A stretch of 64,000 nt of DNA, from NCBI GenBank assembly GCA_963781585.1, contig CAWAGQ010000007.1, positions 192,001 through 256,000 of the forward strand, read 5' to 3'. Position 1 is the stretch's first letter. Each line of letters begins with the position of its first letter. This DNA comes from an uncultured Gemmatimonadaceae bacterium (lineage in GTDB: Bacteria; Gemmatimonadota; Gemmatimonadetes; Gemmatimonadales; Gemmatimonadaceae). The notes beneath the pieces were generated by a model, which ran no database searches, was not told the DNA's origin, and worked only from the letters and a program-made list of their open reading frames with translations. Positions 18,665 to 20,670 of this stretch are shown here, piece by piece. Both the position numbers and the translations under genes were made by a program.

Positions 18665-18756
18665 GCCCGGCGACGCGGGTGACGCGCGTGTGACGGCCGT
18701 ACCGCAGCTTTCTGGAAGTGCCGAAGGTCTGACTTCCAGTACCGCGGAGTGCCCAC

Positions 18757-19143
18757 GTGGACGAGGACGCGGTGAACCGGGTGAGCGGGGAAGTGGTCGA
18801 TGCGGCGATCCAAGTGCACTCGGCGCTCGGTCCGGGGCTGCTGGAAGGTGCTTACAAGGCCTGTGTGCGCTACGAGCTGATCAAGCGTGGCGTGCCGCTC
18901 CAAGCCGAGCTGGCGCTGCCGGTGGTGTACGACGGGATGCGGATCGATCTCGGCTACCGACTCGACCTTGTGGTTTCGGACTGCGTGATCGTGGAGCTGA
19001 AGGCGATCGCGAAGCTCCTCCCGATTCATGAAGCGCAGCTCCTCTCCTATCTCAAGCTGAGCGGCCATCGCATGGGGCTCCTGATCAACTTCCACGTCCC
19101 GCGTCTCAAGGACGGCATCAAGCGCATGGTCAATTCCGGCTGA
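18757..19143 (+). CDS. GxxExxY protein (PD-(D/E)XK nuclease fold)
   Basis: LGPGLLEGAY, RLDLVV, IVELKA, HEAQLLSYLK, GLLINF. Confidence 0.93.
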   Translation: MDEDAVNRVSGEVVDAAIQVHSALGPGLLEGAYKACVRYELIKRGVPLQAELALPVVYDGMRIDLGYRLDLVVSDCVIVELKAIAKLLPIHEAQLLSYLKLSGHRMGLLINFHVPRLKDGIKRMVNSG

Positions 19144-19313
19144 CCCTGCGGGTCGACCGCGGAGAACACAGCGACCGCAGAGGGACCTATTCGCGCGCCA
19201 GCGCGCGGCGAGCAGTGTCAGGGCCGGCGCGTCCGAGCCAAGGAGCGGTGAGACTCTGCGTCCTCCGCGTTCTCTGCGGTGAACTGTTTACCGCAGAGTA
19301 GCTGTGTTAAAAG

Positions 19314-20249
19314 TCAAGGAACAATTGCGACGGGCGGACGCCACGCCGCTTGCGTTTTCACCATGGCATTGAGGGTCGTGAGGAGCCGACGCATACACGC
19401 CGTCAGGGCGACCTTCACCGGCTTGCCCGCCGCGCGGAGCTGGCGATACCACGGCCGCAGCACGGGATTGCAGCGACTGGCCGTGAGCGCAGCCATGTAC
19501 AGCACGGCCCGCACGTGCCGGCGTCCGCCCCAACAGCGGCGGCGCCCGCGCAGCGTGCCGGAATCGCAGGCGAGCGGGGCCACGCCCACCAAGGCCGCAA
19601 TCTCGCGACGCGTTAGGCGCCCCAGCTCGGGGAGGGCGGCGATGAGCAACCGCGCCGTCTGCGGCCCCACGCCCGGCACACTGCGCAAGAGCGCCTCCTC
19701 CGCCCGCCACACGGGACTCTCCCGGATCCAGCGATCGACGTCAGCGTCCGTCGCCGCCAACGCCTTCTCCAGCGTGCGCAGGACCTGCCGGACACTGGCG
19801 CGCACCTCGGGCCGCGCCACGGCGAGCCGGTTCTGTTCCGCGCCGAGCATCTCGAGGAGCTGGCGGCGGCGCTCCAGGAGCGCCGCCAGCGCCTGCGTGG
19901 CGTCGTCTGGAATCGGTCGGGGCGTGGGGCGCACCATGGCGGCGAAGCGGGCGAGCACGGCGGCATCCAGGCGATCCGTCTTGGCGAGCTGCCCCGTGCT
20001 GCGCGCGAACTCGCGCACCTGGCGCGGGTTCACCACCGCGACCGGGATCCCCGCCGTCACGAGCGCCGTGGTCACGCCCCGATGGTAGACACTGGTGGCT
20101 TCGAGCACGACCAGCGCGGCCTCCACGGTCCGGAGGTGCGTGATGAGGCGCGCCCAGCCGGCGGGGTCATTGGGCACTTGCTGCGTCGCCCCCGCATGCA
20201 CGGCGACGTCGAGGGTCGCCTTACTGACATCAATCCCCACGTAGGACAT
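19314..20249 (-). CDS. IS110 recombinase/transposase (DEDD RuvC-like plus Tnp domain)
   Basis: [34 protein letters not shown] catalytic Ser; GGAG upstream of ATG 20249. Confidence 0.95.
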
Positions 20250-20269
20250 CTGTGGCACTCCGCGTTGGG

Positions 20270-20425
20270 ATCGCGCGCGCCCTGCCTTGCAAGATGCGGG
20301 TTCTCGTCGACCCAGGTAGCTGTTCGGGCTTCGAGCGATCGGTGGGGCGGCGCTCCTACTCTGCGACGGGCTCTGTACGCCCCGGCCACGATGATCGAGC
20401 TGCCGCCGTCCCGAACCAACACTCT
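20270..20425 (-). ncRNA. Putative IS110 bridge RNA in the left non-coding end (boundaries approximate)
   Basis: Contains ACAGCTAC (20316-20323) identical to the donor end, TGCAAG (20286-20291) complementary to CTTGTA with one wobble, and CGCAGAG (20359-20365) complementary to the target flank, each within stem-loops. Confidence 0.75.
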
Positions 20426-20670
20426 TCAATGAAGACATACAAGGACACAGAGATCGCAGAGATCCTGCCTGGCGCGCCAGCGTTGGCGAGCCGTGCCAGG
20501 GTCCGGCGCGTGCGAGCCCCGACCGATGAGATTCTGAGTCCTCTGCGGTTGCAATGCTCTTACCGCAGAGGATACAGAGATCGAAGAGATGCCGCTCATC
20601 GCACCCTCTTGCCTGGGGCGATCGTTGTCACCATGTATATCGACTGAGCATGGCGACCCGGGGAGTGCAG

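Follow-up and report, generated by a model that had tools for sequence, protein, structure and literature searches.

The GxxExxY (PDDEXK_3) nuclease gene analyzed here belongs, in somewhat decayed form, to a widespread class of cassettes that join a gene to arrays of short, tandemly repeated words. It resides in a 64,000-nt stretch of DNA from an uncultured Gemmatimonadaceae bacterium, hereafter the window (assembly GCA_963781585.1, contig CAWAGQ010000007.1, forward-strand positions 192,001 to 256,000); positions given without a contig label are those of the window. The genome holding the window, G000, measures 5.7 Mb with 67% G+C in 17 contigs, the window being C7:192001-256000, and was compared with G001, a sister species of the same genus. 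A sequence-only reading of the locus had described the gene as flanked by an array of triplicated 9-mers resembling repetitive extragenic palindromes (REP) or bacterial interspersed mosaic elements (BIME), and had suggested an analogous repeat-mobilising or RNA-processing module parasitised by an insertion sequence (IS) of the IS110 family. We regard both the link between gene and word and the membership of this locus in the class as highly likely; no published description of a gene-plus-word-array class was found.

GxxExxY genes between inverted word arrays

Matches to TIGR04256 occur in 22 of 41 related genomes, G000 counted. To each locus we applied a flank test, in which the 150 nt upstream of the gene are aligned to the reverse-complemented 150 nt on its downstream side, a score of at least 26 is taken as positive, and controls are displaced by 600 nt. 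In a first set of 30 loci from the 41 relatives, 16 were positive against none of 22 controls, the highest of which scored 24; one positive comes from the unpublished genome G008, without which the count is 15/29. A second set, drawn from 151 genomes of the phylum, comprised 26 loci, one of which was dropped for its short flank, and gave 15/25 positives against 0/21 controls. Inverted word arrays thus stand on both flanks in 31 of 55 GxxExxY loci and in 0 of 43 displaced controls, a contrast whose significance is overstated because the controls are mostly coding DNA and the related genomes are not independent; the effect is large nonetheless. The enrichment of repeats near GxxExxY genes across genomes, proposed earlier as a check on the locus, is therefore borne out. 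In relatives, the arms that bracket the gene are 89% complementary overall (605/683 aligned positions).

The protein alignment splits into two subfamilies. Subfamily A, to which the gene in the window belongs, ends in ..NFHVxxLxDGxxRxVN, and its genes are flanked by CRCRRAG words: 15 subfamily-A loci hold 113 of them and the controls 10, and set 2 as a whole gave 142 against 16. Subfamily B ends in ..HFGPKP, and its flanks tend to ..GGAT or ..AGAT words, a weaker signal (40 against 25 in controls). The word class goes with the protein clade, and the locus is part of a phylum-wide design that places GxxExxY genes between inverted arrays of 8-10-nt words.

Genomes were also scanned for three tandem CRCRGAG cores at period 9, matching at least 19 of 21 positions, with the reversed sequence as control. 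The gene is present in 11 of 13 array-rich genomes (scan matches minus control of at least 5) and in 11 of 28 array-poor ones. G022 holds 76 array matches and G002 holds 53, each against 0 in the control; those listed for G002 are almost all one hairpin, CACAGAGGTCACAGAGGTCACAGAG, and these near-identical copies point to recent spread or homogenisation. In two further genomes, G036 and G017, the arrays are mostly solo and some lie apparently in coding DNA. As a separate observation, solo 9-mer arrays of G017 (L068, ~1380-1435) and G036 (L071, L075) appear to sit inside open reading frames (ORFs), where a period of 9 would read as tripeptide repeats.

The protein encoded in the window matches PF13366 (132.8 bits, cut-off 22, E 1e-38) and TIGR04256 (139 bits, cut-off 35, E 8e-41), and belongs to a large family present in prokaryotes and viruses. 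Among 28 sequences, G27-x-x-E30-x-x-Y33 and D70 are invariant, while E80, K82 (at least 90%) and Q94 are nearly so, and the D-ExK catalytic triad is intact. An AF2 (AlphaFold) model with a pLDDT (predicted local distance difference test) of 94.8 displays a confident PD-(D/E)XK core with a restriction-endonuclease-like fold, in agreement with the earlier assignment. Foldseek and VIA-align ranked Cas4 SSO0001 first (E 1.5e-3; Z 7.8, root-mean-square deviation 3.4, 100 residues aligned), followed by CinB, BpuSI, lambda-exonuclease-like enzymes, type II restriction enzymes, and Hjc; a sequence search of the PDB returned nothing relevant. The modeled core is generic and probably active, and its predicted fold gives no indication of substrate. 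PF13366/GxxExxY was classed as "unknown" in a 2012 survey of PD-(D/E)XK proteins (PMC3424549). A literature search for GxxExxY, PDDEXK_3, PF13366, and TIGR04256 found no paper on function or flanking repeats, consistent with the earlier statement that the family has no defined role.

Layout of the locus and its repeat families

The array beside the gene consists of two and a half units, each built from three 9-mers (NNCRCRGAG) that form one arm, followed by a 71-nt filler and then by the arm in inverted form (Table 1). The arms, their alternating orientation, and the 21/27 (78%) complementarity of R1 and L1, which lie 71 nt apart, are all where the sequence-only reading had placed them. Its estimates of ~70-nt spacers and a ~135-nt tandem unit compare with a measured 71 nt and with start-to-start spacings of 134 nt (L1 to L2) and, with the IS removed, 129 nt (L2 to L3). 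The two fillers are 76-89% alike over their aligned pieces; filler 1 has homology to filler 2 as well as to the two G001 fillers, and blastn found no further copy of it in the genome. The region 18741-20588 is best read as a short chain of hairpin-array cassettes, comprising a gene cassette, two gene-less cassettes with a common 71-nt filler, and a solo arm; the cassettes are linked by hairpins that the outermost words form, CTCTGCGGT-loop-ACCGCAGAG. The degenerate word CCCTGCGGG may represent the right bracket of the gene cassette.

Table 1. Features of the GxxExxY locus and its neighbours, in window coordinates
Feature	Position	Strand	Remarks
AcrB-family resistance-nodulation-division (RND) pump gene	15446-18664		5' neighbour of GxxExxY gene
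Isolated 9-mer ACCGCAGAG	18616..18624	+	within last codons of RND pump gene
Upstream half-sites TACCGCAG(C) and TACCGCGGAG	18700..18749	+	at 18700 and 18740-18749
CTGGAAGT/ACTTCCAG inverted repeat	18712-18739		between upstream half-sites
GxxExxY / PDDEXK_3 nuclease gene	18757..19143	+	128 aa; stop TGA 19141-19143
Degenerate inverted word CCCTGCGGG	19144..19152	-	directly 3' of stop; 6/7 core positions
Arm L1, ACCGCGGAG AACACAGCG ACCGCAGAG	19156..19182	+	three 9-mers; starts 13 nt past stop
Filler of gene-less unit 1	19183..19253		71 nt
Arm R1	19254..19280	-	three 9-mers, inverted
Junction hairpin 1, CTCTGCGGT, 9-nt loop, ACCGCAGAG	19272..19298		outer words of R1 and L2
Arm L2	19290-19298, 20444-20461		first word and remainder; split by IS110
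IS110-family element	19299..20441	-	1143 bp; inserted in second unit
IS110 transposase	19314-20249	-
5' non-coding part of IS110 element	20250-20441	-	192 nt
Inner two 9-mers of L2, GACACAGAG ATCGCAGAG	20444..20461	+	contiguous with ACCGCGGAG in G001
Filler of gene-less unit 2	20462..20532		71 nt
Arm R2	20533..20549	-	two words, inner one degenerate
Junction hairpin 2, CTCTGCGGT, 12-nt loop, ACCGCAGAG	20541..20570
Arm L3	20562..20588	+	solo left arm closing array
Beta-propeller gene	start ~20650		3' neighbour of array

Among the folds tested, only the short junction hairpins stand out. Folded as DNA, junction hairpin 1 (R1-loop-L2) reaches z -4.46 and junction hairpin 2 (R2-loop-L3) z -4.61, with 0/200 shuffles as good in either case. 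The long L1-filler-R1 fold is matched by 24/200 shuffles (z -1.08), and both fillers are unstructured (z +0.5 and +0.4). Upstream of the gene, the half-sites and hairpin sequences reported earlier are present, and the hairpin arms CTGGAAGT/ACTTCCAG and the proximal word are conserved in G001; the hairpin itself does not fold significantly (z -1.05, 37/200 shuffles as good). The isolated word at 18616 may be due to chance, since the C-terminal end of the RND pump (..FGD stop) also occurs in orthologues without arrays, and a derivation of this tail from an array was ruled out on the same ground. Rfam gave no ribosomal RNA (rRNA) match within 18400-20800 and a single sub-threshold one, sX15, inside the IS (22 bits against a gathering score of 55, E 0.86). 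Scans for promoter-like sites returned none, and the one terminator-like site lies inside the IS, with none in the arrays.

A genome-wide count of the 9-mer, proposed earlier as a check, depends on how the word is defined. The exact word ACCGCAGAG is not enriched in G000 (22+19 copies against 36 expected per strand), and 6 of its 41 copies fall within 18616-20570; the three-core scan yields 22 matches against 2 in the reversed-sequence control. Searching the genome with the units and the upstream region by blastn-short returns the units themselves only, so that the family is visible only in degenerate word scans. Judged by eye, the scan matches include about ten further gene-less loci of arm-spacer-arm or arm-loop-arm build, while eight others look like chance matches in coding sequence. 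At C12:10511-10604, ACCACGGAG GTCGCGGAG AACACAGAG is followed by a 44-nt spacer and an inverted arm, and at C7:307229-307294 two arms enclose a 12-nt loop; the others lie at C5:46093, C7:13558, C8:68500, C11:113206, C11:174873, C11:196542, C11:338263, and C11:432948. The outermost word of the arms is nearly always ACCRCRGAG. The family is small and not of REP scale, and the GxxExxY gene of the window (gene 1) sits in its largest cluster in G000. A comparison of arm identity within and between pairs (21.6 against 17.1 of 27 positions; 17 against 244 pairs) was set aside, because homogeneity within loci and chance arms in coding DNA confound it. A third 9-mer family, of the GCTGATNNN type, was seen at G000:C11:195973-195982 and G001 L034:2095-2174, with a length difference of ~80 nt between the species.

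The second GxxExxY gene of G000 (gene 2, C6:290610-290939) lies within arrays of a different 9-mer family, GCGGATNNN, where that family is densest. At 16 or more of 18 positions this period-9 family has 36 matches against 0 in the control, 12 of which surround gene 2; at 17 or more of 18, all matches have period 9 and none period 8 or 10. Gene-less GCGGATNNN loci are found at C5:5832, C8:23406, C10:257589, and C11:415228. No other observation speaks as strongly for gene and repeat as a functional unit as the position of each of the two genes in the densest cluster of its own word family. Two details of the gene 2 region (G000:C6:290200-291250) are recorded alongside: its GCGGATNNN arrays include an 18-nt unit, GGCGGATCAGGCGCACAG, four times over, and a 210-codon open frame runs from gene 2 into the array.

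The arrays differ between the sister species. Array lengths beside gene 2 are not the same in G000 and G001, and one unit has been gained or lost at C7:13558, where G000 has a solo R arm and G001 the series R-loop-L-spacer-R. Near this locus, two G001 segments (L035 and L036, C15:854-1471 and C15:14627-16100) both match G000 C7:13552-15042; the segment next to the array is thus present twice in G001, ~13.7 kb apart, and could be an array-bounded large insertion or a duplication. A 406-nt repeat of G000 (C13:17136-17541 and C11:120570-120975) has a 95% identical copy in G001 (L035:1466-1869), beside an array locus of that genome.

GxxExxY paralogues within one genome are only 39-79% identical in 8 of 8 pairs, and in this respect the gene behaves like a RAYT (REP-associated tyrosine transposase) rather than the transposase of an insertion sequence. 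Twelve orthologous RND loci were compared, from G001 and 11 other genera, and the cassette lies downstream in G001 only; in the other genera, 0/11 have a GxxExxY match within 1.5 kb downstream of the RND gene, and the downstream genes differ. The absence of GxxExxY beside RND in these genera indicates that the cassette is genus-specific. A propeller orthologue in G023 (65% identity) was considered as an empty site and rejected, its neighbours being different.

The same bracket is found around an unrelated gene. The single PF05635 gene of G000 (C10:20754-21068, L041), which encodes a four-helix-bundle protein of the 23S rRNA intervening-sequence (IVS) family, lies between upstream heptamers of the GGCCAAA type and a downstream run of about ten TTTGGCC repeats. 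The (GGCCAAA)n heptamer is a microsatellite-like family of ~65 loci, with 313 matches at 24 or more of 28 positions (control 0), most of them oriented alike; its array period is 7, and a period-9 scan gave 0 matches. One heptamer match lies within the window itself, at ~52803 (C7:244803).

An IS110 element that inserts into the arrays

The suggestion that an IS110 element parasitises the array is upheld by copies and empty sites. The transposase has the DEDD domain PF01548 (E 1.3e-26) and the Transposase_20 domain PF02371 (E 3.9e-17), and matches NF033542 with 217.9 bits (cut-off 140). G000 carries three copies that are 100% identical and one that is internally deleted, and all 4/4 lie between the outermost word and the next, at a site that reads ..NN-CT and then CTCTGYGGT on the IS strand. 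The deleted copy (G000:C11:113272-113671) keeps 260 nt and 147 nt of the ends and still sits at the 9-mer junction. G001 aligns collinearly with the window, at 92-94% identity to either side, and has no IS, so that ACCGCGGAG and GACACAGAG run on uninterrupted; it holds empty sites for all three full copies. In addition, a 42-nt remnant of an IS end in the third unit of G001 (reverse complement of L031, 4690-4731) marks the equivalent junction. In arm L2, an IS110 element aimed at the outermost word has inserted, and its copies at the same junction, together with the empty sites, identify it as a secondary insertion and a specialist of these arrays.

IS110-family elements reported to target REP sequences through a bridge RNA include IS621 (PMC11208160), ISPpu9 (PMC12288879), and ISPpu10 (bioRxiv 10.64898/2026.03.19.712850). 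The element here shares with them the DEDD and Transposase_20 domains, a 2-nt core, the lack of inverted ends, and a fixed position in the host repeat; unlike them, it targets the outermost word of 9-mer arrays, and its bridge RNA is putative. The core dinucleotide is AG (CT on the IS strand), with an ambiguous assignment at the element ends. The minus-strand 5' region holds two word-like segments, GUACAGAG and GUCGCAGAG, and a search of it for the bridge RNA gave no Rfam match and a fold z of -0.36.

Likeness to known systems and possible mechanisms

REP sequences are short extragenic palindromes present in hundreds of copies, and the low-copy HUH Y1 gene associated with them is flanked by its own repeat type. 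The elements described here resemble the REPIN-RAYT pairing (REPIN, a REP doublet forming a hairpin) in being short imperfect extragenic palindromes, single and clustered, with a low-copy nuclease-type gene amid its own repeats. As with REP, some genomes hold many identical-looking hairpins, and IS110-family elements insert into the repeats. The differences are that the enzyme has a PD-(D/E)XK and not an HUH core, and that the arms are tandem 9-mers and not one 20-40-nt palindrome, at about ten loci instead of hundreds. The sole PF01797 HUH Y1 (IS200/IS605-type) gene of G000 (C3:316227-316583) has no CRCRRAG words in its flanks; as the arrays are neither REP-like in number nor neighbours of this gene, the earlier label of a REP/BIME array does not hold in the strict sense. 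This Y1 gene is instead flanked by CCCCCGG..CCGGGGG hairpins. Integron cassettes offer a further likeness, being tandem cassettes, some gene-less, separated by imperfect hairpins, whereas the RYYYAAC and GTTRRRY core sites of attC are missing from the junction hairpins at 19272-19298 and 20541-20570.

We tentatively favour a REPIN-RAYT-like pairing with a PD-(D/E)XK enzyme, in which the arrays would be the target of their own nuclease and would be turned over through its action; this is a substantial possibility that stays a little short of probable. The nuclease, probably multimeric, would recognise its own word arrays either in duplex form or when extruded into a hairpin or cruciform, and would nick or cut there. 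Repair, template switching, or arm-to-arm recombination could then copy, add, or remove hairpin units, while the gene would stay low-copy amid its own repeats, as a RAYT does with REPINs, though with a different fold.

Several results weigh against this reading, besides the overstated significance of the flank test. The locus in the window is itself among the 14 failures of set 1: it scores 20 and its G001 orthologue 18, not above background, and the gene has only one word upstream, direct and not inverted relative to L1, with a degenerate inverted word after the stop. The complementarity of L1 and R1 mostly reflects the common word, being at about the level of any two arms of the family, and arm pairing is not clearly under selection; the hairpin at C7:307229 is only 17/27 complementary, with A.C and G.T mismatches, yet conserved in G001. 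The link between gene and array also has exceptions, as 11 genomes carry the gene with few arrays of the CRCRGAG word class, and G036 (25 array matches, 90% complete) and G017 (5, 96% complete) have no PF13366 or TIGR04256 match. The layout around the PF05635 gene shows that the bracket design is not nuclease-specific, non-nuclease cargo having the same one. All structural neighbours of the protein are generic, with Z < 8, too low to place it in a sub-family of the PD-(D/E)XK fold. Comparison of the RND-propeller junction in relatives, a check proposed earlier, gave no exact empty junction for the gene cassette, the synteny being too poor.

An RNA-based explanation, by which the arrays would pair in the transcript, an RNase III-like cut would free or stabilise the cargo mRNA and insulate the neighbours, and the nuclease would have its target elsewhere, strikes us as unlikely. 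Its model is the ORF-carrying 23S rRNA IVS: the sections of PMC4990558 used here describe ORFs bordered by ~28-bp complementary termini that are cut by RNase III, with a sporadic distribution suggesting horizontal spread. A small ORF between complementary termini is what the bracketed loci of relatives (31/55) have in common with it, the window's own gene scoring 20, not above controls. Both the bracket around the PF05635 gene, itself of the 23S-rRNA-IVS protein family, and the high complementarity of the gene-bracketing arms in relatives speak for the RNA-based explanation. The locus in the window differs in lying between genes (RND pump and propeller) and not in 23S rRNA, in its nuclease cargo, and in arms made of word arrays. 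Among the mismatches of gene-bracketing arms, G.U-type changes are not in surplus on the sense strand (25 G.U-type against 21 A.C-type, p 0.66, a test of low power), which argues against a selected RNA stem as much as it leaves a DNA-level reading open. The fold of L1-filler-R1 does not surpass those of shuffles, solo arms and hairpins that pair poorly have been retained, and neither an Rfam family at threshold nor a promoter-like site was found, the sole terminator-like site being in the IS. Of the two options in the sequence-only reading, a repeat-mobilising or an RNA-processing module, the link between gene and repeat across genomes has thus been recovered, while the RNA option has no support from wobble pairs and the module as a whole is weakened by the four-helix-bundle gene and by the two genomes with arrays and no PF13366 match.

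The gene cassette could itself be mobile, either as a nuclease gene of the homing type, entering arrays that lack a gene, or as a small transposon with word-array ends whose deletion derivatives are the gene-less units. Gene and flanking words do travel together across protein clades, the cassette is confined to G001 among the 12 orthologous RND loci, and PD-(D/E)XK homing endonucleases exist, I-Bth0305I being among the weak fold matches. Such mobility is nonetheless distinctly unlikely in view of the divergent paralogues, which leave no close copies in the same genome whereas IS110 has three identical ones, of the 71-nt fillers, which by eye are unlike the gene, and of the failure to find an empty and an occupied allele of a gene cassette. 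Very unlikely, in our judgment, is that the arrays are sites for a host nucleoid or regulatory protein at which small selfish genes merely accumulate. The class 2 sites of Geobacter metallireducens provide the precedent: the available sections of Aklujkar et al. 2009 (PMC2700814) report three tandem TCTCCGTS[Y] in opposite-strand pairs at variable distance (21 pairs), interpreted as binding sites of the IHF/HU type, and insertion sequences at a fixed distance from related class 1 sites. Both build and word recur in our arrays, the reverse complement of the published consensus, (R)SACGGAGA, being the word found here, and the consensus fits CTCCGTGACCTCCGCGTTCTCCGTGGT (C12:10580) among other arms, as well as the CTCYGYG words in R1 and R2. 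The passages of that article consulted here show no link to GxxExxY genes. The existence of arrays without a gene and of two unrelated cargo families with one design fits host sites; what host sites leave unexplained is that each GxxExxY clade has its own word class, that every such gene is found where its own word family is densest, and that G002 has so many identical-looking hairpins. A fortuitous proximity of a small gene to a local tandem repeat would account for the failure of the window's own flanks to pair above background, and is extremely improbable given 31/55 loci against 0/43 controls, the repetition of the pattern with another word at gene 2, and our estimate that ~12 array loci in 5.7 Mb put an array within 150 nt of a given gene about 2 times in 1000.

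A broader proposal, which we consider rather doubtful, is that GxxExxY and four-helix-bundle IVS proteins are encoded by a single class of hairpin-array elements, widespread and so far undescribed, with ends made of 7-10-nt words and each clade reading its own word. If this were true, the 9-mer arrays would serve a minimal PD-(D/E)XK nuclease as an address that is modular and able to evolve, and the long-unexplained spread of IVS-type cassettes and of the paired tandem-repeat sites of the Geobacter type would come under a single mechanism. The IS110 element offers a natural case of five independent insertions at one 11-nt address with matching empty sites, useful for studying how a bridge RNA chooses its target in repeated hairpin-forming sites. 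For the PF13366 family, the link between clade and array gives a concrete substrate candidate, and it suggests a candidate driver for repeat families that were taken as regulator sites in Geobacter.

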